IMG/VR virus record: IMGVR_UViG_3300033076_000676
Location: 1-35,652 of that record
Strand: one strand, 5' to 3'
Origin: a virus
Taxonomy: Duplodnaviria > Caudoviricetes
Length of the DNA stretch: 35,652 bases
The position numbers and the translations under genes are program-made. Under the pieces are notes generated by a model. That model had not been told where the DNA came from. It worked only from the letters and a program-made list of their open reading frames with translations, and did no database searches. Shown here one piece after another: positions 18,750-29,304 of the stretch (the first letter of the stretch is position 1; every line of letters starts with the position of its first letter).

Positions 18750-19820
18750 ATGACAGTTAAGTTTTCTAACAATGCGGCCGGGACTCTTGGTGCCGCAATT
18801 TTAAGCACAGATACTAGCTTGTCTGTGGCCTCTGGTCAGGGTGCGCTATTCCCAACTATTGGCGCTAATGAGTTCTTTTACGTCACTCTAATTGACTCAA
18901 GCAACAATCTTGAGGTCGTTAAGGTCACTGCCAAATCGTCAGATACATTCACGGTAGTTCGCGGCCAGAACGGCACAACTGCGCGTGCATACTCTGCTAA
19001 CGATAAAGTTGAGTTGCGCGTTGTATCTATTGCGTTTGATGAGTTCGTGCAGCGTGATGGTGGCGTTGCAATGACTGGCGACTTGAACATGGGTGGCAAC
19101 CAAGTATCCAATATTGGTGCGCCTGACTCAACAGATGACGCAGTACATGCCGGCAGGGCAATCAACACATCTGGTGGAATTCAAGGCGGTGGAGACCTAA
19201 CTGCAGATCGCACATTATCTTTGACAGACACAGGTGTTGGTGCCGGCTCTGTTGGATCTGCATCTGAAATACCTGTTCTGACTATTGATGCTAAAGGTCG
19301 CGTTACAGCAAAGACCACAGCTCCACTTGATATGTCTAGCAAGGTTAATAAGTCCGGCGACACAATGACCGGCACCCTTTCTGGAACAACATTTAAGTCA
19401 GATAGAACCAGCCAGGACGCTCGCAATACAGGATTCCAACTGGCAACTGGCGTTGATATTGGCGAGTGCGACAGGTCAACTCAGTACTACGACGATCTAG
19501 CCTCTAACTGTAACGGCTACCTGCCAAATGGTAATTGCGCCGGCAACCCAACATGGACTCCGCCTAACGGCAACTGGTGGTCATGGGGCGTATCTGGCGT
19601 GCCAACTAGTAACTGCGCTAACTATGGCTCATACGACGGTGCTGGTGGTTTCTCGCAGTCATTCAATTCTGTGAGCGTAGGCTACAACTACGACGGATAC
19701 TACGAGGCAGCAAACGAAATCGGCGGATCAGAGCAGAGACGCAACTACAGAAACTGTAACTGCGGTTCATTTAACTGCCGCACTAACTGCAACTGCAACT
19801 GCAACTGTAATTGCAAATAG
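18750..19820 (+). CDS. tail fibre protein with an Asn-Cys-rich C-terminal domain
   Basis: Fibre N-terminus MTVKFSNNA...EVVKVT...TVVRGQNGT; fibre repeats MTGDLNMGG, GGGDLTADRTL, IDAKGRVT and KSGDTMTG; C-terminus NCNCGSFNCRTNCNCNCNCNCK. Confidence 0.85.
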   Translation: MTVKFSNNAAGTLGAAILSTDTSLSVASGQGALFPTIGANEFFYVTLIDSSNNLEVVKVTAKSSDTFTVVRGQNGTTARAYSANDKVELRVVSIAFDEFVQRDGGVAMTGDLNMGGNQVSNIGAPDSTDDAVHAGRAINTSGGIQGGGDLTADRTLSLTDTGVGAGSVGSASEIPVLTIDAKGRVTAKTTAPLDMSSKVNKSGDTMTGTLSGTTFKSDRTSQDARNTGFQLATGVDIGECDRSTQYYDDLASNCNGYLPNGNCAGNPTWTPPNGNWWSWGVSGVPTSNCANYGSYDGAGGFSQSFNSVSVGYNYDGYYEAANEIGGSEQRRNYRNCNCGSFNCRTNCNCNCNCNCK

Positions 19821-19827
19821 GAATTTC

Positions 19828-20496
19828 ATGCTCAAACTAAAGGCGGCTGAGTCTCTCTTCCCTGACGAGATAAGGGTGTATGAATCAAACGTACCTGCGC
19901 ACATAAATGAAAAGATAGTTAATTCTTTTTACGTTGATCATCAGCAACCAGGGCAACCTGGTCGCAAATCAAGAATCGATTACCGCAGTATGACGGATTC
20001 GGATGTGGTGGAGGCGCTGCAAACAGTCTTTAATGAAGCATTTAAAGCGTACGTGGACGAGCTATACGACCAAAGTATTTACGAAGCCTGCGATTTTTAT
20101 CAGGACTGGTCGGCAAACTCGTCTTACAACGGTCAGGCGTGCATTTCACACACTCACAACGAGTCGTTCATATCTATAGTCTACTATCCTATTGATGCAG
20201 CGGCAGAACCTCAATCTATTTTAAGAAGCATTGTTGCCGATCTTTTAAGTGGGCAGATAGTGTTTTTAAATTCAGATGGCACATCAATAACAGATCGGTA
20301 CTCAAAACAAAACAGACTGTTATGCCAAGTTAGCCCCAAAGCGGGAGATGTAATTGTGTTTCCTGGTCATATTCCTCACTTTACAATTCCAGGCTCATTC
20401 AAACATCGTTTTTGCATTGCAAGTTTTGTGCAGGCAAAACAAAAAACGTCCTTTAAAATAGGGACAAACGAACCACTTACTGGAGAATGCAAGTGA
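19828..20496 (+). CDS. putative 2OG-Fe(II) oxygenase-fold protein (TIGR02466 / 2OG-FeII_Oxy_5-like)
   Basis: HTH...ISIVYY, PKAGDVIVFPGHIPH and RFCIAS give an HxH...H ligand set plus the distal Arg. Confidence 0.8.
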   Translation: MLKLKAAESLFPDEIRVYESNVPAHINEKIVNSFYVDHQQPGQPGRKSRIDYRSMTDSDVVEALQTVFNEAFKAYVDELYDQSIYEACDFYQDWSANSSYNGQACISHTHNESFISIVYYPIDAAAEPQSILRSIVADLLSGQIVFLNSDGTSITDRYSKQNRLLCQVSPKAGDVIVFPGHIPHFTIPGSFKHRFCIASFVQAKQKTSFKIGTNEPLTGECK

Positions 20497-21212
20497 AACT
20501 TATCGTTAGAGATTTTACTCAGCCGACATCAGTTGATGTTAGCGACTACCCAAAGCTTGTTGAAACAGACGCCGGTCACCGCGTTGGCAATAAAGACATA
20601 GAATGGAAACAAGACTTCGTTCCATTTACGTATCGCTACTACTTATGGTCAGATCAAGATGACAAAATGATCTCCTTGGATGCGCGATATGTAATAGAAA
20701 GCAGAGAGGGTTTGCAGGCTATGACTACATTGTATGGTCATAGATATAAGGTGTCCGGAGATAAGAGTCTCAATATTGGATCGGGTCCTACAGCCGTGGT
20801 CTTCTTTGCGCAAAATCTAGATGAGTCCGCGATTCTCATTAACGAGTTTTGCACAACAGAGTTAGAGCACATCTCAGATGCCTCGAGTGCTGGCAGACTA
20901 AATGTCATCGCTGAGCATTGCCCTGCGTCAAGACCGTTTTTAGCTAGATGGCAGGCTAAAAGAGAGTTGCTTGCACAGATCAACACAAATGATGCGGTTG
21001 CTAACTTGGAGAAGCAGGTTGATGTTTTGTGTGAACTGGTGTTCGCCCTAGCAGACATGGCCGCAGAAAAACCATCTTGGTACGATACTTTTAAGCAGTC
21101 CGTTAGAAGTAGCTCTTCAGCCAGCCCATCGGATGAGTTGATTGAAAAAATGAAGAATGAGAAATCCAGACTGCGCAGCCTTGTAGAAAAGTACGTTCAA
21201 CAAAGAGGATAG
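20487..21212 (+). CDS. hypothetical protein with helical C-terminus (possible fibre chaperone or accessory factor)
   Basis: 241-aa ORF overlapping the oxygenase stop; coiled-coil-like DAVANLEKQVDVLCELV. Confidence 0.65.
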   Translation: MQVKLIVRDFTQPTSVDVSDYPKLVETDAGHRVGNKDIEWKQDFVPFTYRYYLWSDQDDKMISLDARYVIESREGLQAMTTLYGHRYKVSGDKSLNIGSGPTAVVFFAQNLDESAILINEFCTTELEHISDASSAGRLNVIAEHCPASRPFLARWQAKRELLAQINTNDAVANLEKQVDVLCELVFALADMAAEKPSWYDTFKQSVRSSSSASPSDELIEKMKNEKSRLRSLVEKYVQQRG

Positions 21213-21213
21213 C

Positions 21214-22398
21214 TTGAAGCAGTCTCTAGTCATTTTTCACTCAGATAGTAGGGAAAGCGAAAACAAAGCCAGCCAACTAGCGCGGGCTGCGGCTGCTTAC
21301 TCATTGCGACCAGTCTTTGTTTCTCCTAAGCCTTCGAGGCTACATGAGCAAGGCGCAATGAAGGTTAATTATGACTCAGATAAAATCGAATCGATCTGCG
21401 AGTTAATTTACAAGACCAATCCTGCCGCAATACTGTCTTGCAGTGATGGCGTGACCATTCATGCGCTGCAAGCATCTGAGTATTGTGGCCTAACATCTGG
21501 CACGAATTTCGAGGCGTTCCAATCGAAAGCAGCCAGCTACAAATTGTTTTCCGAGGCCGGCTTTGCGACACTGCCATTTAAGCAGATTCTGACATTAGAA
21601 GACATTGAAGAGTGCGACATTCAAGGCGAGATCTTTGTAAAGCCAGATTGGTCTAGCGCGGTATACGGGCAAGTGCCGTGGGCGTACAAGCGTTTTGTTT
21701 CTACCAAACATTTACTGGATTACATAGTTAATAGTGGGTTGCGTGATAGGTTCTTAACCGCCTCTGCGAATCCCTTTGAGCGGTCGATTGTTATGCCATT
21801 CATAGCACACGATGGCATTACAACGATTAGTGGAATTTTGAGAAAAGACCGCGCTGTACCTCTAGCGCATTCTTTTGTGAAAATTTCTGGTGACGATTAT
21901 TTTTACGACTACTTGAATTTTGCAGATATTGGCGATACTAAGAAGCTGAACCCGTGCATCTCTAGGTTGTGGGATCTGGGTTTTCACAGTCACTTTACTT
22001 ACCTACAGTGCTTAAACCTTGGTGGTGTTAACTACTGTATGGATGCCAACACGCGGATGTCAACGTACTTGGACACATGGGTGACAAGGCACGATCCAAG
22101 CTTTTATGAAAGATGTCTTGCTTTCGTCTTACAAGAAAGCAACGCGGTTAATTTTGAAACACCATCACCACACACCATGATTGCGAGGGTGCGGTGCGAC
22201 CCACACCTTCCTATCAAGAGCTTAACCTGGAAGGATGTGGCTGGTGTAGAGCCTTTGAATTTTAACAGCCTGTCAACATCTAGGGCGCCTTATGACAAGG
22301 CATATTCATGGCCAACATTTGTTGTCACAGCTGATTCACAAGAGCAATTGCTAGTAAGGTATGAGCGGTTTTTACAAGGTGTATGTGTAACACAATGA
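21214..22398 (+). CDS. ATP-grasp fold ligase (divergent)
   Basis: AAILSCSD pre-grasp region, SKAASYKLFSEAG, IFVKP, IVMPFI and CMDANTRMS (equivalent of the usual E-x-N-x-R motif); TTG start. Confidence 0.7.
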   Translation: MKQSLVIFHSDSRESENKASQLARAAAAYSLRPVFVSPKPSRLHEQGAMKVNYDSDKIESICELIYKTNPAAILSCSDGVTIHALQASEYCGLTSGTNFEAFQSKAASYKLFSEAGFATLPFKQILTLEDIEECDIQGEIFVKPDWSSAVYGQVPWAYKRFVSTKHLLDYIVNSGLRDRFLTASANPFERSIVMPFIAHDGITTISGILRKDRAVPLAHSFVKISGDDYFYDYLNFADIGDTKKLNPCISRLWDLGFHSHFTYLQCLNLGGVNYCMDANTRMSTYLDTWVTRHDPSFYERCLAFVLQESNAVNFETPSPHTMIARVRCDPHLPIKSLTWKDVAGVEPLNFNSLSTSRAPYDKAYSWPTFVVTADSQEQLLVRYERFLQGVCVTQ

Positions 22399-22409
22399 GG
22401 GGTAAGTAA

Positions 22410-23762
22410 TTGGCTATTTTTAAAATCCTGGCTCGCAGAGAGATTGACAAACAAGAAGCTGTCTTCTTCTACGACAACATCAATTCCACTTTAAAAACAG
22501 AGGCTGGTGTTGACGTCGTGCCGCAAGACATCTACACAGAGCAACGTGAAGAGTTTTTCCAAACAACCAAAGATAACCCGGCAAACAAGACTTCGCCCAA
22601 GGTTCTCAAGATTAGCTTGGGACTATCGTGCAACTATGAGTGCACATACTGTAACCAGAGATTTGTTCCACACGCGGACTCAACAAACAAGGACGACGTT
22701 CAGCCGTTTCTTGACAATCTAGATAAATGGGTTAAGGAAGCGCCAGACACTATTGAGTTCTGGGGCGGTGAGCCACTAGTCTACATCAAGACATTAACTC
22801 CGCTTGCGGAGGCGCTGAGAGAGAAGTACCCAGACTCAGCGTTTACTATGATTACTAATGGGGCACTACTCAATCCTGGCTTAAACGAATGGCTAGATCG
22901 ATTGGGGTTCAATATTGGCATTTCTCATGACGCCATGGGCCAGCACGTCAGAGGTCCAGATCCCCTTGATGACGAGCAATCGCGTGAAGGCATCATAGAC
23001 CTGTACAAGAGACTTAAACCACAAGGTCGCATTAGCTTTAACACAATGATGCACAAGGGCAACCAGTCTCGAGCTGACGTTCAGCGCTGGTGGGTAGAAA
23101 GATTTGGCGAATCAGTCAACATTGGTGAGGGCGCGTTCATTGACCCCTACGACGAAGGTGGAGTTGCTAGCAGCCTTGAAAGCGAAGAAGAACAGATTGC
23201 ATATCGCAAGCAATCTTTTGAAGAATTACGCTCTGGCTCGGTCACGAAGTTTGATGTTGTGCGCGGGAAGATGGGTGACTTCCTGTATTCGCTTAGAAGT
23301 AGGAGAAACGCATACAGCCTTGGCCAAAAATGCGGAATGGACAAGCAAGAGAATATTGCGGTTGATCTCAAAGGCAACGTGCTAACTTGCCAAAATGTAT
23401 CTTCCGCTTCTCGGTCACCTAACGGCGAAAGTCATTTGATTGGGCACGTAAATAATTTTGATGACATTCGCTTGAATACAATTACTCACTGGGCCAAGCG
23501 TGACGAGTGCCCTAACTGTCCTGTTCTGCAGATATGCAAGGGCAGCTGCATGTTTCTGCACGGGCGACTCTGGGATGTTGGATGCGCCAATTCTTACAGC
23601 GACAACATTCCGTTCTTTGCTGGATCTATCGAATACGTAACTGGATTTAAGCCATACCGCATAGAGCACGAAGCACTTCCAGAAATTCGACAAGACATTT
23701 GGGCTGAAAACTATAAACCCAAAAAAACATTAAAGACGATTCCTATCGTTCCAATTAGTTAA
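22410..23762 (+). CDS. radical SAM / SPASM domain protein
   Basis: CNYECTYC (CxxxCxxC), FWGGEPL, ITNG and ISHD; C-terminal KCG...GNVLTCQ...CPNCPVLQICKGSC...C SPASM cysteines; TTG start. Confidence 0.93.
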   Translation: MAIFKILARREIDKQEAVFFYDNINSTLKTEAGVDVVPQDIYTEQREEFFQTTKDNPANKTSPKVLKISLGLSCNYECTYCNQRFVPHADSTNKDDVQPFLDNLDKWVKEAPDTIEFWGGEPLVYIKTLTPLAEALREKYPDSAFTMITNGALLNPGLNEWLDRLGFNIGISHDAMGQHVRGPDPLDDEQSREGIIDLYKRLKPQGRISFNTMMHKGNQSRADVQRWWVERFGESVNIGEGAFIDPYDEGGVASSLESEEEQIAYRKQSFEELRSGSVTKFDVVRGKMGDFLYSLRSRRNAYSLGQKCGMDKQENIAVDLKGNVLTCQNVSSASRSPNGESHLIGHVNNFDDIRLNTITHWAKRDECPNCPVLQICKGSCMFLHGRLWDVGCANSYSDNIPFFAGSIEYVTGFKPYRIEHEALPEIRQDIWAENYKPKKTLKTIPIVPIS

Positions 23763-23772
23763 GGAGTATTCC

Positions 23773-23967
23773 ATGAGCGACGCAGCTTTAAACCCAAGGT
23801 TTTCTATTGCAGTAGAAGAAGACGAAACACACTATCACGTTTTTGTTTACACGGTAAAAGATGGGGTGAAAGCAGAATACCCAACAAGCATTTATCATTT
23901 CGATAAACATAGTGGAGTTGCTGTCAACGATCTTTTAGTAAATGCCGCACCACATCTTTTTGCGTAA
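23773..23967 (+). CDS. small hypothetical protein
   Basis: AAGGAG RBS; 64 aa; last gene of the enzyme cassette. Confidence 0.7.
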   Translation: MSDAALNPRFSIAVEEDETHYHVFVYTVKDGVKAEYPTSIYHFDKHSGVAVNDLLVNAAPHLFA

Positions 23968-23976
23968 GGACAGGGG

Positions 23977-24612
23977 ATGACAGTTAAATTCTCAAACAAC
24001 GCTAGCGCAACATTAGCGACAAGCATTAACACTGCAGTGACATCAATCCAGGTAACGGCTGGGCAGGGTGGACAGTTTCCTTCATTGGGGTCTGGCGAAT
24101 ACTTTTTTGCTACCCTCGTTGATAGCTCAAACAATATTGAGATTGTTAAGGTTACAGGCAGATCATCCGACATTCTTACGGTTGTTCGTGCGCAAGATTC
24201 AACAACCGCAAAAAGCTATGTAGCCGGCGACAAAATTGAACTTCGAACTACAGCCGCTGCTTTAAGTGCAATCTTGCAAGATGCTAAAGATTATTCTGAC
24301 GCAAGCGCCGGTAGCCTAATTAATGCACACGTCAACGACCCATCCGATGCGCACGACGCATCAGCGATTAGCTTTGCCACGACCGGCAGTATTAGCGCCA
24401 CTGATGTTCAGGCCGCTATCGCTGAGCTTGATACAGAGAAGGTGGCCAAGACAACTACTATTACCGCGTCTAACGGCATCACCGCATCTGGCGATCTCGG
24501 ATCCGGAGTAAGTATTAGCCCGACTGCTGGCTACAACGGGCACGGCGTTAGAACAGTTTCTTCATCTGCACCATCAGGCGGTAGCGATGGTGATATCTGG
24601 TATCAAGTCTAA
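23977..24612 (+). CDS. second tail fibre protein (paralogous N-terminus to 18750)
   Basis: MTVKFSNNA...DSSNNIEIVKVT...DKIELR; AHDASAIS and ATDVQAAIAEL; C-terminal APSGGSDGDIWYQV. Confidence 0.85.
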   Translation: MTVKFSNNASATLATSINTAVTSIQVTAGQGGQFPSLGSGEYFFATLVDSSNNIEIVKVTGRSSDILTVVRAQDSTTAKSYVAGDKIELRTTAAALSAILQDAKDYSDASAGSLINAHVNDPSDAHDASAISFATTGSISATDVQAAIAELDTEKVAKTTTITASNGITASGDLGSGVSISPTAGYNGHGVRTVSSSAPSGGSDGDIWYQV

Positions 24613-26015
24613 TGCCAAAGATTTACGTTAAAGATAGTGGCGCCTGGAAACAGGTTCTTCGCATTTGGGTCAAGCAAGCCGGCACTTGGAAAGGTGTTGC
24701 GGCCGGTCTAGTGACTAGTGGTGGTATTGGAAGGCAGTTCTACCCAGACACAATCGGAACAGTAGTTTACTCAGCTGCTGGCACATACTCGTACACAGTG
24801 CCTGCCGGTGTTACTCAGCTCGAGATCACGTACCCAACGTTAAGTGAACTAGTTACTCAGACAGTCTCGGTGACATCTGGTGCGACATACACAGTGACAA
24901 TTGGTAACTATGGTTCAGGATCTTCATTTGGAGCCTTGCTAACACCTTCTGCATATACAAAGACCGTTGCATCTTTTTCTGGCAACGTTGATTCTCAGGT
25001 GTACGCGGTCTGGGGTGTTGCAACGGCATCTGGTGACACAGCGTATTCTGGAACCGGTACTAGTGGAGCGTTAAATTCAGGTGCTGCAAGCGCTGGCTGC
25101 TACTACAGTGAATACGGGGAAGGGGGGCACGGTGACATTGACGCCAGCATCTCTATCAACACAGTCAAGTCAAGCACATTGGTCGCGCCACTTGATGTTG
25201 CTGTTATCAATTTCTCTGGTCGCGGCGAGTCTGGCGTTACCATTACAGAACAACCAACTGCAGGTAATAGTTTTAGGGTAACTGCTCGAGCATATGACGG
25301 CGGTTATAGTGAAGGCGGCCAATCTTGGAGTCTTCAGCTGCGTCAAATTGTTTCATTACAGATTAAGGCAATTGGGGCCAACTACCAGAACTACACATCT
25401 GGTGGCACATACAGCTTCACAGTGCCGGCTGGTGTGACATCTCTATCTGCAACTGTCTATGGCGGCGGTGGCGGATCTGGTGCATGTAACAACAACGGCG
25501 ATGCCTGGGTTGGCGGCGGTGGTGGCGCTGGTGGTAAAGCCACTAGCACGATTGCGGTAACTCCTGGCGAGACTTTGACATTCGAGGTTGGTGCTAAGGG
25601 TTATGGTGCATCTTCTAGATTCAACGGCGCTTATTGGTACAACCCAAATAACAGCACGCTAGGCACCGGCACGAACGGTGGCAACACAGCCATCAAGCGC
25701 GGGTCAACGGTCTTGCTGTCCGCTAATGGTGGTACTGGTGGTGTTCAATACGGCTACGGTGTAGGTGGATCACCAGCGGTAGCTGGCACATCCCCTCCTG
25801 GTCATACGGGCGACGGAGACGGCGAGCAAGGCTCTACACCTGGTTACAAGGGGTACGGATACCAAGGCTTAATCCGTGGCGGTACAAACGGATCTGGCAC
25901 ACCTCCGGCCGGTTATGGAGATGCTGGCACAGGATACGGTAACGGCGGCGGTCACGGCAACTTCAACCAGCCAGGTTGCGACGGTCAGCACGGAGCCATA
26001 TTGCTGTCCTGGTAA
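24612..26015 (+). CDS. glycine-rich tail fibre tip / adhesin-like protein
   Basis: IYVKDSGAWK..WVKQAGTWK N-terminus; twice GTYS(Y/F)TVPAGVT; GGGGG-rich C-terminal domain. Confidence 0.8.
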   Translation: MPKIYVKDSGAWKQVLRIWVKQAGTWKGVAAGLVTSGGIGRQFYPDTIGTVVYSAAGTYSYTVPAGVTQLEITYPTLSELVTQTVSVTSGATYTVTIGNYGSGSSFGALLTPSAYTKTVASFSGNVDSQVYAVWGVATASGDTAYSGTGTSGALNSGAASAGCYYSEYGEGGHGDIDASISINTVKSSTLVAPLDVAVINFSGRGESGVTITEQPTAGNSFRVTARAYDGGYSEGGQSWSLQLRQIVSLQIKAIGANYQNYTSGGTYSFTVPAGVTSLSATVYGGGGGSGACNNNGDAWVGGGGGAGGKATSTIAVTPGETLTFEVGAKGYGASSRFNGAYWYNPNNSTLGTGTNGGNTAIKRGSTVLLSANGGTGGVQYGYGVGGSPAVAGTSPPGHTGDGDGEQGSTPGYKGYGYQGLIRGGTNGSGTPPAGYGDAGTGYGNGGGHGNFNQPGCDGQHGAILLSW

Positions 26016-26078: not shown

Positions 26079-26270
26079 ATGTCTGACAAAAAGCCACTAC
26101 CACTAACTGACGAACAGATTGAAGACCTGGTTGAGAAGGTAACCGAGCGCGTAATCGAGAACGTCTATATCAGCATCGGTCAATCGGTCGTCAAGAAGTT
26201 CTTCTGGATTATTGGTCTAGGGGCTTTGAGTCTTCTGACATACCTAGCGGGGAATGGAACATTCAAATGA
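26079..26270 (+). CDS. small membrane protein
   Basis: C-terminal hydrophobic segment FFWIIGLGALSLLTYL. Confidence 0.65.
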   Translation: MSDKKPLPLTDEQIEDLVEKVTERVIENVYISIGQSVVKKFFWIIGLGALSLLTYLAGNGTFK

Positions 26271-26623
26271 ATGAACTAATCGCAACCCTATTCCTAGCTC
26301 GAGACATTGCTCACAAGGCTCACCTGGCAACAGGTAGCTATGCACAACACGTTGCTCTTGGTGAGTTCTACAGCTCGATCATTGATCTAGCAGACAAACT
26401 AACTGAGGCTTATCAAGGTCGCACAGACACATTGCTCGAGATCCCATTGATGGACGACGAAACAACTGGCGACATCATTGAAGACCTAAGGAAGTACCAG
26501 GACTACGTTGAGCAGAACAGATACTCAGCAGCAAAAAAAGAAGACACACCGATTCAGAACATCATCGATGAGGTAGTTGCGCAGTTCCTATCTACTCGAT
26601 ACAAGTTGACAAGATTGAAGTGA
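26267..26623 (+). CDS. ferritin/Dps-like four-helix protein (DUF5856-like)
   Basis: AHKAHLATGSYAQHVALGEFY...DKLTEAYQG and IQNIIDE...YKL motifs. Confidence 0.7.
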   Translation: MNELIATLFLARDIAHKAHLATGSYAQHVALGEFYSSIIDLADKLTEAYQGRTDTLLEIPLMDDETTGDIIEDLRKYQDYVEQNRYSAAKKEDTPIQNIIDEVVAQFLSTRYKLTRLK

Positions 26624-26630
26624 GGTTGAA

Positions 26631-26921
26631 GTGGAAGAGCCAATCATTGAAACAAAGACGCCAGCGCTAGTTTTAATTGAATGGCTGGATGCCGAGCATG
26701 AGTTCGGTTGGCAGGAGGGGAATGAGATCGATGATCAAGAACCCGTCCTTACGTGCTTTACGGTTGGGTGGTTGTTGAAGAAAACAAAGCTCCACGTAAA
26801 AGTTTGCCAGACGTTTTCACATAACAACCATGCACAAACGTTGACGATCCCGAAAGGCATGATCGTAAACATGACAGTTTTACAACAACCGATGAAACGA
26901 CATGCAGCCAAGGGTAAGTGA
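26631..26921 (+). CDS. hypothetical phage protein
   Basis: LVLIEWLDA...CFTVGWL...TIPKGMI pattern common in phages. Confidence 0.7.
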   Translation: MEEPIIETKTPALVLIEWLDAEHEFGWQEGNEIDDQEPVLTCFTVGWLLKKTKLHVKVCQTFSHNNHAQTLTIPKGMIVNMTVLQQPMKRHAAKGK

Positions 26922-27849
26922 AGATGAGTTCATAGCGATCTGGAGAAGATTGCAAAGCGCCGCTTTAGTGGCAAAAGAAATTGGTGTTGATGTACGCAAC
27001 GTACACCTACGCCGCAAGCGCATTGAGGAGAAGCGTGGTATTGCTCTCAACTCAAACGATAGGCGCTCTCCTACATTCCTCCGCAGAGAACACGCACCTC
27101 GTGTTGATTGCGAGATGGAGAATGGAGTAATCATTGTTGGTTCTGACGCGCATTACTGGCCCGGTCAGATCAGCACAGCACACAAAGCTTTTGTTCAGGT
27201 CATCAAAGACCTGAAGCCTGAGCTAGTAGTAATGAACGGCGACCTATTCGATGGCGCCAGAATAAGTCGGTACCCACAATCAGCGTGGATCAAACTACCG
27301 ACAGTCAAGGAAGAACTTGACGCAGTTGCAGAACGTCTCCATGAGATCAAGACTGCAGCTGGCAGTGGTAAAACCTGGTGGTGCTTGGGCAACCACGATA
27401 TGCGCTTCGATGCAAAGCTAGCAAACAATGCATCCGAGTTTGAAGGCGTACCAGGCTTTACCCTTGGCGATCACTTCCCTGGTTGGAACATCAGCATTAG
27501 CTTGTTCGTAAACCAGAGCTTGATGATCAAACATCGTTTCCGTAATGGAACACATGCCACGTGGAACAACACCTTGTATAGCGGTGTATCCATGTGTACT
27601 GGTCACTTGCATCGTCTCCAGGCAACCATCTTGAATGACTACGGTGGTACACGCTGGGGTATCGATTGCGGAACCCTAGGCGAAACAGAGGGTGACCACA
27701 TGCACTACGGAGAAGATAACCCAACCAACCATTGCTCTGGCTTTGCTGTGTTAACCATCGTTGATGGACAGTTATTGCACCCAGAGTTCTGTGTTGTGAT
27801 TGGCGAGAAAGCCTACTTTAGAGGGAAAGAAGTTATATGCAACAAATAA
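26902..27849 (+). CDS. calcineurin-like metallophosphoesterase with an N-terminal HTH-like segment
   Basis: SDAH, NGDLFD, GNHD, KH and GHLH motifs. Confidence 0.88.
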   Translation: MQPRVSEDEFIAIWRRLQSAALVAKEIGVDVRNVHLRRKRIEEKRGIALNSNDRRSPTFLRREHAPRVDCEMENGVIIVGSDAHYWPGQISTAHKAFVQVIKDLKPELVVMNGDLFDGARISRYPQSAWIKLPTVKEELDAVAERLHEIKTAAGSGKTWWCLGNHDMRFDAKLANNASEFEGVPGFTLGDHFPGWNISISLFVNQSLMIKHRFRNGTHATWNNTLYSGVSMCTGHLHRLQATILNDYGGTRWGIDCGTLGETEGDHMHYGEDNPTNHCSGFAVLTIVDGQLLHPEFCVVIGEKAYFRGKEVICNK

Positions 27850-28322
27850 GAGAAAAAGTTTTATTGTTCTTCGTTGGCTTGCTACTTGGATTGCTATGTG
27901 GTGAAGCCAAAGCGCAGGACACAACGATCAACTACAAAGGTCAACCAGTACCGTCTGCTATCGCACCTTCAATGAGTGCGTTCTCGCAAGACGTGTGTGG
28001 CATTCCTGTGTCTGGAGCTATCAGCTCTACTGTTATTGGTGTGAGCGGTGGCTCTGTTTACACAGACACGAACTGTGAACGCATCAAGCTAGCCAAGACG
28101 TTGAATGACCTTGGCTTGAAGGTCGCTGCAGTGGGCATCCTCTGCGAAGACGAGCGTGTTTGGCGCGCAATGGAGATGTCTGGTTCGCCATGTCCTATCG
28201 GTGGATCTATAGGGGATACGGCAAGAAAGGCATGGGCTGAACGTGAGCCGAAACGATTTGAACAACTATATGGCAAGGTTCCTTCTTTTACTGAGCCTGC
28301 TACTACTGGGGAAACCAAATGA
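27837..28322 (+). CDS. exported Cys-containing phage protein
   Basis: Signal peptide ending AKA; SAIAPS...DVC, NCERIKLAK, LC and SPCP motifs. Confidence 0.7.
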   Translation: MQQIREKVLLFFVGLLLGLLCGEAKAQDTTINYKGQPVPSAIAPSMSAFSQDVCGIPVSGAISSTVIGVSGGSVYTDTNCERIKLAKTLNDLGLKVAAVGILCEDERVWRAMEMSGSPCPIGGSIGDTARKAWAEREPKRFEQLYGKVPSFTEPATTGETK

Positions 28323-29304
28323 TCTCTTGGCTCAAAGCTGTTATTGCACGACTCAGTGGTACCAAGGTGGACCATACGGAAGCTACTGTATTGCCAACTC
28401 AACCTGTTGGGCCTGTCAGCCAGGAGCCTACGACCAAACGTGGCAAAGGACGTACTGCCCTAGCTACCAATGTGCCGACAGAACAGAAACCCAAACGCTC
28501 GCGTGCCCAGCGAACTACAGCGGAAGCATCACCCAAACAAGAACGTACTTCTGCAAAACGAACAGCTATTCAGCCTGGACAACAACAAGCAACACCTGCA
28601 CCCCAAACCCGCCAACCTGCAAAGCGGGGTCGGAAACCAAAACAGTAAGTTGTGATACTGGGTACACGGGTTCAATAACGCAGACAAGGATTAGCACATG
28701 TCCAGATCCATATGGTCAACCGGTGTGGCAACCCTGGGGGACTACATCCAACAGTTGCGTGAAGTCGATAACCAACGTCACGAATCCTGCGTCGCCTGTA
28801 AGCCCCGTGAGTCCCACCAGTGCAGCAGCAACCACAACATCAACTGCAACTGTGCAGACAGCACCTGTAGTGCAGACGAGTCCAACAACGGATGGCGTAA
28901 GTGCCCAGACAGTGGAAAGCTCTGTTCCTACATCTCCTGCCCCGACCAGTGCAGGGGAGACAGCGCAACCGAAGGTGGAGAGCAAGTCGAGCAGTGCCAC
29001 TGCATCGTCCCCTGCAGCACCCCCTACGACTGCAAGTGCCAGCAACGGCACAACAAATAAAGACACACCAACACCTAAAGGAAGGACAGCAGTTCCCGGC
29101 TTTGGGCTGGTAATGAGTCTTGAACTCTTTATTAAGCCTGGGATAGTCCAACCAAACGTATTTCCTGAAGTTGTTATGAAGCAAGAGCTACCAGTTGAGT
29201 TGCTCATGCATGGCGTCTTCATGCTCGATCTACTGACTGGCGTGGAAATCCCAAATCAATTAAACCGATTTGAAGAAATCCAAAGCCTAACAGTGGAGTA
29301 CTAA
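28270..29304 (+). CDS. exported Cys-rich repeat protein with Ser/Thr/Pro-rich linker
   Basis: Likely start MARFLLLLSLLL (signal peptide); two repeats ET.T..C...Y.GSITQTR...C.....W.TTSN.C. Confidence 0.7.
   Translation: MARFLLLLSLLLLGKPNDLLAQSCYCTTQWYQGGPYGSYCIANSTCWACQPGAYDQTWQRTYCPSYQCADRTETQTLACPANYSGSITQTRTYFCKTNSYSAWTTTSNTCTPNPPTCKAGSETKTVSCDTGYTGSITQTRISTCPDPYGQPVWQPWGTTSNSCVKSITNVTNPASPVSPVSPTSAAATTTSTATVQTAPVVQTSPTTDGVSAQTVESSVPTSPAPTSAGETAQPKVESKSSSATASSPAAPPTTASASNGTTNKDTPTPKGRTAVPGFGLVMSLELFIKPGIVQPNVFPEVVMKQELPVELLMHGVFMLDLLTGVEIPNQLNRFEEIQSLTVEY

Follow-up and report, generated by a model that had tools for sequence, protein, structure and literature searches.

Why would a phage carry a radical S-adenosylmethionine enzyme with a SPASM domain (rSAM), an ATP-grasp ligase and a 2-oxoglutarate (2OG)-Fe(II) oxygenase directly behind a tail fiber gene? 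The question is raised by positions 18750 to 23967 of the IMG/VR virus record IMGVR_UViG_3300033076_000676. The window, that is, the whole stretch of DNA analyzed here, has 35,652 nucleotides and comprises the entire record, with an estimated completeness of 64%. An initial annotation, made from the letters of the window, had taken these genes for a maturation cassette akin to those for RiPPs (peptides that ribosomes synthesize and that are modified after translation), with the end of the fiber as the substrate. The six open reading frames (ORFs) are indeed present in the order it gave, all on the + strand (Table 1), and the small gaps it described are spacings of 7, -10 (an overlap), 1, 11 and 10 nt; tail genes do resume after the cassette, the next one 9 nt past the 64-aa ORF. 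On balance, we favor the interpretation that this is a RiPP-like system for fiber maturation, in which the rSAM would crosslink an (Asn-Cys)n ladder at the end of the fiber by Cys-Asn thioethers and the ATP-grasp enzyme would acylate the terminal residue, Lys356.

The fiber carries a virion-anchor domain homologous to known fibers, with residues 1-106 matching PHROG tail-fiber families (phrog_8469, E 6.8e-28) and residues 2-103 matching the tail fiber chain (chain 1) of PDB 8JOV (E 6e-19). This domain is common to a ladder-free fiber gene at 23977 (54% identity over 101 aa), and homologs of the tip sit on other stems. The Cys/Asn-rich tail seen in the initial annotation is borne out, all 12 Cys lying within residues 240-355 and 11 of the 12 being preceded by Asn; Lys356 is the last residue and the sole Lys in the final 120. 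Ladders were found on 162 different proteins of 81 to 686 aa. Because the ladder is C-terminal in 154 of these and lies directly ahead of a Hint domain in 6, a free C-terminal ladder is conserved over this whole range of stems. A fused long fiber is not required, since in many relatives the ladder lies on a separate gene of 81-135 aa, often three in tandem. The number of viral stretches that match the search pattern is estimated at ~1700.

Relatives of the rSAM are numerous as well (2905 among 7996 scored candidates, distant ones included). The initial annotation held that its proposal would be in trouble if such relatives usually lacked a Cys-rich fiber neighbor. The reverse was found: with 47 of 175 loci set aside for having less than 4 kb of upstream flank, a ladder ORF lies upstream of the rSAM in 121 of the 128 loci with at least 4 kb, or in 74/78 clusters at 90% identity and 36/39 at 70%. 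The downstream control gave 1/105, which puts the link far above chance; the antisense control gave 10/128, probably through reverse reading of the ladder repeat itself. Among the seven misses, L013, L143 and L135 have near-motifs, the fiber is deleted or broken in L119, L123 and L200, and L142 is unclear. Conversely, of 53 viral loci in which an (NC)4 ladder runs into a stop codon, 45 have a gene for this rSAM downstream, co-directional with the ladder and within 3.7 kb; four of the eight misses fall outside ORFs of at least 30 aa, one has no stop, and three have less than 1.5 kb downstream. This two-way coupling agrees with the earlier prediction that the C-terminal domain of the fiber is the substrate, and the rSAM very probably acts on the ladder. 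The loci lie within tail modules, in phages of podovirus-, siphovirus- and myovirus-like type, and three isolates, Achromobacter phages JWF and 2-1 and Ralstonia phage RSP15, carry the core module in their tail regions.

The ladder loci vary in several ways. In L119, L123 and L200 the fiber/partner region is lost or broken and the rSAM is kept; these are probably decayed prophage copies. A Hint domain is fused right behind the ladder in L014:5793-7244 (JWF gp028), L015, L012, L100, L116, L162 and L217; in L003, L226 and L231, that place is taken by another C-terminal domain, which has no annotation. By the known cleavage chemistry of Hint domains, cleavage would free the ladder as the C-terminus and might attach a nucleophile there. 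L004:5711-6582, L006, L009, L128, L134 and L136 encode three tandem paralogous ladder proteins of 89-115 aa with fiber-like repeats, which could form a heterotrimeric mini-fiber.

What, then, would the ATP-grasp enzyme act on? Its presence goes with a single residue: the ladder ends in Lys in all seven ATP-grasp loci. The first set of loci held seven Lys-ending ladders, three with an ATP-grasp gene and four with His-box desaturases (PF00487, E 1e-11 to 2e-13). Scanning viral sequences with an ATP-grasp alignment gave four loci, all four with an rSAM and a Lys-ending ladder, and the metagenome scan with that alignment found nothing. A first scan with a DNA pattern for Lys-ending ladders led to a fitting ORF in 9 of 96; besides two chance non-fiber ORFs and two with only 300 nt of flank, there were five loci with flank, all of which carry desaturases. 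Desaturase loci with full flank all contain, in addition, an antisense gene of ~190 aa, assigned to the GNAT acetyltransferases by a profile of 63 sequences that matches PDB 4LUA (E 5.5e-7) and 3G8W (2.5e-4), 10 of its 13 matches being named acetyltransferases; single family members have no Pfam match. GNAT scans yielded 19 loci, some known already, and the 12 ladders visible in them all end in Lys.

Pooled, 204 loci divide into 177 with neither Lys nor enzyme, 7 with Lys and ATP-grasp, 20 with Lys, GNAT and desaturase, and none that is mixed; no member of the ATP-grasp family or the GNAT-desaturase family occurs in the 177 non-Lys loci. Clustering at 90% leaves 15 with Lys and an enzyme and 91 with neither, clustering at 70% leaves 9 and 47, and the mixed classes stay at 0 both times. 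The loci picked by rSAM alone show the same division (126 with neither, 2 with Lys and ATP-grasp, 4 with Lys, GNAT and desaturase). A second Lys scan, with a fitting ORF in 8 of 66, returned four known loci, three fibers without an rSAM in the flank, and one apparent exception, the T4-like locus L377, which has two Lys-ending ladders and an rSAM and neither main enzyme family. There, the rSAM gene is directly followed by one that encodes an unrelated GNAT-like protein and scores just below the Pfam cut-off (PF00583, E 0.0014, 19.3 bits, cut-off 20.7), and the nearest ladder relatives of L377 end without Lys. In this sample, three enzyme families with two amide-forming folds thus fill one slot when the ladder ends in Lys.

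The trait is also independent of rSAM descent, since in a quick-search tree of 82 rSAM rows it takes 8 changes to account for the 9 rows with Lys, and branches with good support force 7 of these changes. Tips 81-84% identical to that of the window end in Lys in two of the GNAT loci (L092, L275) and in Cys in loci where the enzymes are absent (L002, L107, L112, L132, L177, L203, L204 and L216). Because ATP-grasp and GNAT enzymes share an amine acceptor, epsilon-N-acylation of the last Lys is the simplest model. With nearly as much confidence as we assign the ladder to the rSAM, the co-occurrence leads us to predict that the ATP-grasp enzyme acts at Lys356.

The sister cassettes (L074:6326-6925(-), L093:6381-6986(-), L275:10499-11068(-), L335, L349, L352 and others) always combine the antisense GNAT with a Lys-ending ladder. 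They have one or two His-box desaturase-like genes and several cupin/2OG-like oxygenases, and are candidates for a pathway of fiber-tip lipidation. L377:5539-8267(-) encodes ladder proteins of 135 and 139 aa and two antisense genes, one of them Asp/Asn-hydroxylase-like; neither of the partner families F2 and F10 described below was detected in its flank.

From these elements a course of maturation can be proposed. The N-domain would anchor the fiber to the virion, and the rSAM would bind the ladder, with the partner of 241 aa and the protein of 64 aa probably assisting. Three Cys on auxiliary cluster I (AuxI) would leave one iron site open for a substrate thiol, as has been proposed for the archaeal enzyme CrpC; abstraction of an Asn C-H and formation of a C-S bond would follow, at -2 Da per link. 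The 2OG enzyme would hydroxylate the tip or the added group. The ATP-grasp enzyme would activate an acid as the acyl phosphate and amidate the epsilon-amine of Lys356 with it; the donor is probably an amino acid, since the enzyme is of the L-amino-acid-ligase type. In the sister loci, the group added (by the GNAT together with desaturases and oxygenases) would be a fatty acyl chain with tailoring. The outcome would be a rigid, chemically decorated fiber tip. Tentatively, several tail types may share a modular, RiPP-like assembly line for fiber tips with a one-residue code, in which the rSAM staples and the terminal Lys marks acylation. Within the same tentative picture, the ATP-grasp enzyme would add an amino or other acid and the GNAT, desaturases and oxygenases a fatty acid, and host recognition would rest on enzyme-made chemistry, including lipidated tips, as well as on protein sequence.

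Table 1. Coordinates of the fiber maturation cassette and the adjoining fiber system in the window
Feature	Position	Strand	Remarks
Tail fiber A, 356 aa, predicted substrate	18750..19820	+	anchor ~1-103, stem, Cys/Asn-rich tip ~237-356
(Asn-Cys)n ladder, residues 336-355, and terminal Lys356 (codon 19815-19817)	19755..19817	+	read from the sequence
2OG-Fe(II) oxygenase, common accessory	19828..20496	+	PF13759; H110-x-E112...H184
Partner protein, family F10, 241 aa	20487..21212	+	alternative to the Ig-containing partner F2
ATP-grasp ligase	21214..22398	+	K105, K143, Q265, D277-x-N279-x-R281 invariant
Radical SAM/SPASM enzyme	22410..23762	+	C74-C78-C81; SPASM Cys C308, C327, C367, C370, C376, C380, C392
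64-aa protein	23773..23967	+	member of a small family seen solely with tips of this type
Second fiber system (context, outside the cassette)	23977..26015	+	anchor gene 23977-24612, Gly-rich fiber 24612-26015; without a ladder

The fold assignments of the initial annotation held for all three enzymes. The rSAM passes Pfam Radical_SAM (PF04055, 33.8 bits, cut-off 29.5), with the CxxxCxxC core in place, and the SPASM model TIGR04085 (33.8 bits, cut-off 27), and matches phrog_1802 (E 1.4e-64). The oxygenase is above the cut-off of Pfam 2OG-FeII_Oxy_5 (33.6 versus 27 bits), and its H-x-D/E...H triad can be read from the sequence. The ATP-grasp protein has no Pfam, NCBIfam or PHROG match at the thresholds used. 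Its place in the superfamily comes from its Atlas model, which matches named ATP-grasp folds with a TM-score of 0.75-0.78, and from the ATP/metal-site residues K105, K143, D277, N279 and R281, invariant, like Q265, in 10/10 homologs; we take the conserved ATP-site lysines and the D-x-N-x-R to be the canonical ATP-grasp motif. The nearest named models are of the L-amino-acid-ligase/carbamoyl phosphate synthetase (CPSase) type, several with an L-amino-acid-ligase C-terminal domain, and there are weak PDB matches to VanA and to ligase 3VOT (E ~0.004-0.005). With D-Ala ligases and with L-amino acid ligases (BacD-like, PDB 3VOT), the enzyme shares the fold (TM ~0.75), a weak match in sequence and the conserved ATP-site lysines and D-x-N-x-R. 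Such ligases are known to join free amino acids, whereas a protein Lys would be the acceptor here, as the gene coupling suggests. The ATP-grasp gene stands as a part of this cassette, but not as a core gene, being a rare add-on in 7 of the 204 loci.

Lys356 is probably acylated by a free acid rather than used in a protein crosslink. Under the opposite view, which we consider unlikely but worth weighing, the ATP-grasp enzyme would form a protein-protein amide, namely an isopeptide from Lys356 to a carboxylate of the same or a neighboring chain (Glu/Asp or a trimer-closing C-terminus), with the role of the rSAM unchanged. In a variant of this view, it would ligate an amine onto the alpha-carboxylate of Lys356. 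The oxygenase could hydroxylate the linked Lys, as in corallotide. The precedent is close, as corallotide unites an ATP-grasp enzyme, a 2OG oxygenase, a partner protein and Lys isopeptides, with the Lys as amine donor (PMC13097080). Its donor-acceptor motifs are repeated, however, while the window has one terminal Lys and no conserved Asp/Glu nearby. An isopeptide would need no external acyl donor, none being encoded here, and would fit the Lys coupling of the ATP-grasp loci equally well; in addition, one of the ten family members weakly matches TIGR04192 grasp-with-spasm (E 0.0016). Against this, the window enzyme itself matches only D-Ala-D-lactate ligase (E 0.18), with no sequence match to the graspetide or TIGR04192 families, and differs from graspetide enzymes both in the ligase type of its nearest named models and in its coupling to an rSAM and a fiber. 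Three of the seven Lys ladders, including that of the window, have no Asp/Glu in the last 25 residues, although acceptors upstream or on another chain would be possible. GNATs, which work with acyl-thioester donors, occupy this slot in 21 further Lys loci, and this argues that the amine accepts an outside acyl group; an isopeptide would leave the GNAT loci unexplained. The crosslink of -18 Da proposed earlier for the ATP-grasp enzyme must accordingly be set beside an acyl mass on Lys356, which is at least as likely given the co-occurrence with Lys.

For the rSAM, analogy with known enzymes makes thioether formation the probable chemistry on the ladder. It could act there without making thioethers, by epimerization, aromatic C-C crosslinking or Cys oxidation as in anSME, the ladder then being a metal or Fe-S site in the trimer; we rate this as unlikely as the protein-protein amide. 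The auxiliary clusters of anSME are fully ligated. The SPASM pattern of the present family, CX9-15GX4C...CX2CX5CX3C...C, has seven Cys in 117/117 full-length homologs, with core and SPASM Cys invariant in 51 sequences; in 97 of the 117, the stretch from the core motif to SPASM is free of Cys, and there is no conserved eighth Cys. As judged from sequence, this fits an open three-Cys AuxI, unlike anSME, although a non-Cys fourth ligand is possible. On the other hand, SPASM enzymes catalyze many reactions (PMC9389541), and the best PDB matches of the rSAM include anSME and YydG besides CteB. Alternating Cys on a strand would face one side, as in metal-binding spikes, and it is the ladder Cys positions that are conserved while the intervening residue varies (N 69%, C 10%, D 8%, A 6%; n=841). 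Yet NxxcB, which links Cys to the beta-carbon of Asn as its native acceptor and tolerates Ala, Gln and Asp (PMC9389541), matches the residues found before the ladder Cys, and across the tips Asn-Cys is conserved and aromatics are not.

It is quite improbable that the ladder serves as the core peptide of an ordinary RiPP, cut off as a free peptide from a fiber part that is only leader or carrier. The short separate ladder genes would suit such a scheme, and selidamides are free lipopeptides whose Lys is acylated by GNATs (PMC8784127). A RiPP in the strict sense, however, would have a short precursor, a leader protease and export; here the precursor is a 356-aa fiber, and the initial annotation was right that the cassette contains no protease or transporter, nor does one recur among the neighbor families. 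Where Hint follows the ladder, cleavage would leave the ladder on the fiber, and the placement of the loci in tail modules of several phage types argues in the same direction. Phage rSAM and 2OG enzymes often modify DNA, and the oxygenase weakly matches a PHROG labelled DNA endonuclease V (E 4.7e-4), but a moron that acts on DNA bases or small metabolites and sits behind the fiber incidentally would explain neither the two-way ladder-rSAM coupling nor the single-residue Lys coupling, and is very improbable.

Several points weigh against thioether stapling with acylation of Lys356, the reading we prefer. The rSAM scores far below the maturase cut-offs (PapB 56.2/340, SCIFF 31.4/425, TIGR04463 38.6/525), and its PDB neighbors include anSME, YydG and other non-thioether enzymes. 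No PqqD or RiPP recognition element (RRE) match was obtained with Pfam in 51 rSAM homologs (E <=1), and no PDB match begins before position 44 of the profile. The rSAM may work like CrpC or NxxcB, although these scores do not place it in their families. As to the Lys rule, a fiber and its accessory genes can move as one block, so that the independent Lys events number perhaps 8-10, not 28; at 70%, the Lys clusters are 4 with ATP-grasp and 5 with GNAT, many loci were found by searching for one feature, and the rSAM tree comes from a quick search only. Three fibers ending NCNCNC-x-K (L392, L399 and L405) have no rSAM within 2.4, 1.6 and 8 kb of downstream flank. A Pfam screen of non-Lys loci for ligases (78 representatives of 287 ORFs, 174 loci) found none, but both the ATP-grasp family and the main GNAT family escape Pfam, so that a divergent ligase could have been missed; four non-Lys loci contain a family with weak similarity to asparagine synthase (E 0.017). 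Finally, no gene for acyl-donor synthesis is visible in the cassette of the window.

The ends of L392, L399 and L405 are look-alikes outside the module. In the myovirus-like, non-Lys loci L003:4864-7119, L019, L041, L143 and L146, a DctP-like solute-binding gene and a gene of 92-100 aa lie beside the cassette, and four of these loci have the asparagine-synthase-like gene. In RP31, a distant phage, the virion proteins listed from mass spectrometry do not include any of ORF68-76 (PMC5468394 Table S3), a result that is gel-band based and uninformative.

Among the known systems closest to the predicted stapling is CrpC/CrpA of Methanococcus voltae, with ranthionine crosslinks shown on a Cys-rich protein and a three-Cys AuxI, its open iron serving the substrate thiol, proposed by the authors (Dieter et al. 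2026, PMC13692751). CrpC resembles the rSAM of the window in its seven-Cys SPASM and in having a folded protein substrate with a C-terminal Cys-rich region encoded next door. It differs in its predicted RRE, its membership in TIGR04463 and its motif, CxxQ/D instead of (NC)n; moreover, the system is archaeal and described without a virion substrate, a partner gene, an oxygenase or a Lys-acylating add-on. Known protein substrates of rSAM thioether enzymes include CrpA and QHNDH (the latter as cited in PMC13692751). NxxcB, PapB and CteB make radical Cys-to-carbon thioethers on short leader-core peptides that are later released (PMC9389541). PapB is the second-best NCBIfam match of the rSAM and CteB (5WGG/5WHY) its second-best PDB match, but in the window the core would be the end of a tail fiber, Asn and Cys alternate, and the scores are low as described above. 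For the acylation, selidamide GNAT maturases, which acylate Lys or ornithine of ribosomal cyclized peptides (Hubrich et al. 2022, PMC8784127), provide a model for the GNAT-desaturase sister loci. Selidamides are free bacterial peptides, whereas the window uses an ATP-grasp enzyme in that slot, and on a phage fiber. PMC7159879 concerns other systems.

The remaining cassette genes are accessories or partners. Of 192 loci, 143 contain an oxygenase of some kind. The gene that the initial annotation listed as unknown is present, and it proved to be core-like, as an F2 or F10 partner occurs in 188 of the 192. These two families exclude each other (F2 only in 168 loci, F10 only in 20, both in 0, neither in 4), and F10, the family of the window, is likely an adaptor or chaperone. 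Its AlphaFold model has a pLDDT of 65.5, and Foldseek gave no fold match with this model, the N-half of which is poor. F2 folds well (pLDDT 94.6) into an unknown N-domain and an Ig-like domain; only the C-terminal Ig-like domain matches solved structures (Z 11.9, root-mean-square deviation 1.8, 89 residues), the N-domain having barely been tested. Profile comparison of F2 with F10 gave no link (probability <1%), and a like order of strands and helices in the models of the two N-domains is only a hint. L328:5524-6000 and L329:5529-6002 contain a 158-aa gene with a weak match to the N-domain of F10 only, which suggests that this domain is the working unit of the partner. The family of the 64-aa protein was seen in 14 of 32 loci of this tip family versus 0 of 160 others; the window copy has weak homology to the family, and a tip-specific helper is possible.

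The phage itself is podovirus-like, since the window carries terminase, SU10-type portal, adaptors, major head protein and internal virion proteins, along with an endolysin (Pfam/PHROG). Freshwater metagenomes hold DNA near-identical to the window. The closest cellular copies of the rSAM are mostly in Burkholderiales genomes, for example Limnohabitans, and the cellular loci examined run on into phage lysis or tail genes. Searches of isolated phage genomes by tblastn gave no match for the ATP-grasp or for the tip. The cassette is not an assembly artefact, because contigs from public runs agree across the region: in run X1, possibly the source sample, a single contig covers 17623-24411 with zero differences; in a second study, X2, almost identical contigs tile most of the cassette; and in strain X4, ~5% divergent, most of it is covered without gaps. 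No RNA data set was among the public runs listed as matching, and scans for promoters (8 vs 13.0) and terminators (10 vs 8.3) were at chance level.

In a literature search limited to titles and the starts of abstracts, with most subscription journals outside its coverage, we found no report of rSAM, ATP-grasp or acylation acting on phage fibers and none of a Lys-dependent ATP-grasp/GNAT switch, in keeping with the earlier remark that no characterized example was known. Since phages are known to encode the glycosylation of virion proteins, modifying a virion is in itself no novelty; what would be new is to staple and acylate fiber tips in the RiPP manner. The enzymes belong to known superfamilies, and the terminal-Lys rule is new here. 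The cassette is real and widespread and the genomic evidence for its enzyme-substrate pairing is strong, while the chemistry and a role in adsorption are predicted. Phage host range is read almost wholly from fiber sequence. If the prediction is true, widespread phages and prophages build part of the virion surface chemically, a part that recombinant fibers and structure predictions would miss. The terminal-Lys rule makes the target of the ATP-grasp enzyme testable by one point mutant, and the prediction also indicates new enzymes with which proteins might be acylated site-specifically at the C-terminus or folded proteins given multiple thioethers.

Other genes of the window and other phage cassettes are worth recording. 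Between the tail and lysis genes of the window, 26267-27849 (+) contains two genes, one of the DUF5856 family (a starvation-inducible regulator according to PHROG) and one for a calcineurin-like metallophosphoesterase. Adjoining the lysis genes, 28243-29304 (+) encodes a repeat protein of 353 aa that is rich in Cys and Thr, is hydrophobic at its N-terminus and has neither a Pfam nor a PHROG match. In the jumbo phage RP12 of Ralstonia, an ORF of 65 aa that lacks annotation and has an NC ladder close to its end lies between ORF074 and ORF075 (L016:2975-3172); after it come a gene that may be F2-like, three genes annotated as rSAM and one of the DUF3050 family. Erwinia phage Asesino (L017:5139-6182) has a different RiPP-like system, in which two peptides of 127-155 aa with ~20 Cys and CSGC-type repeats, together with a 68-aa paralog, precede two rSAM genes. 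Lastly, in L299:3592-4744, genes for a heme oxygenase and a ferredoxin-dependent bilin reductase lie beside the ladder-rSAM cassette.

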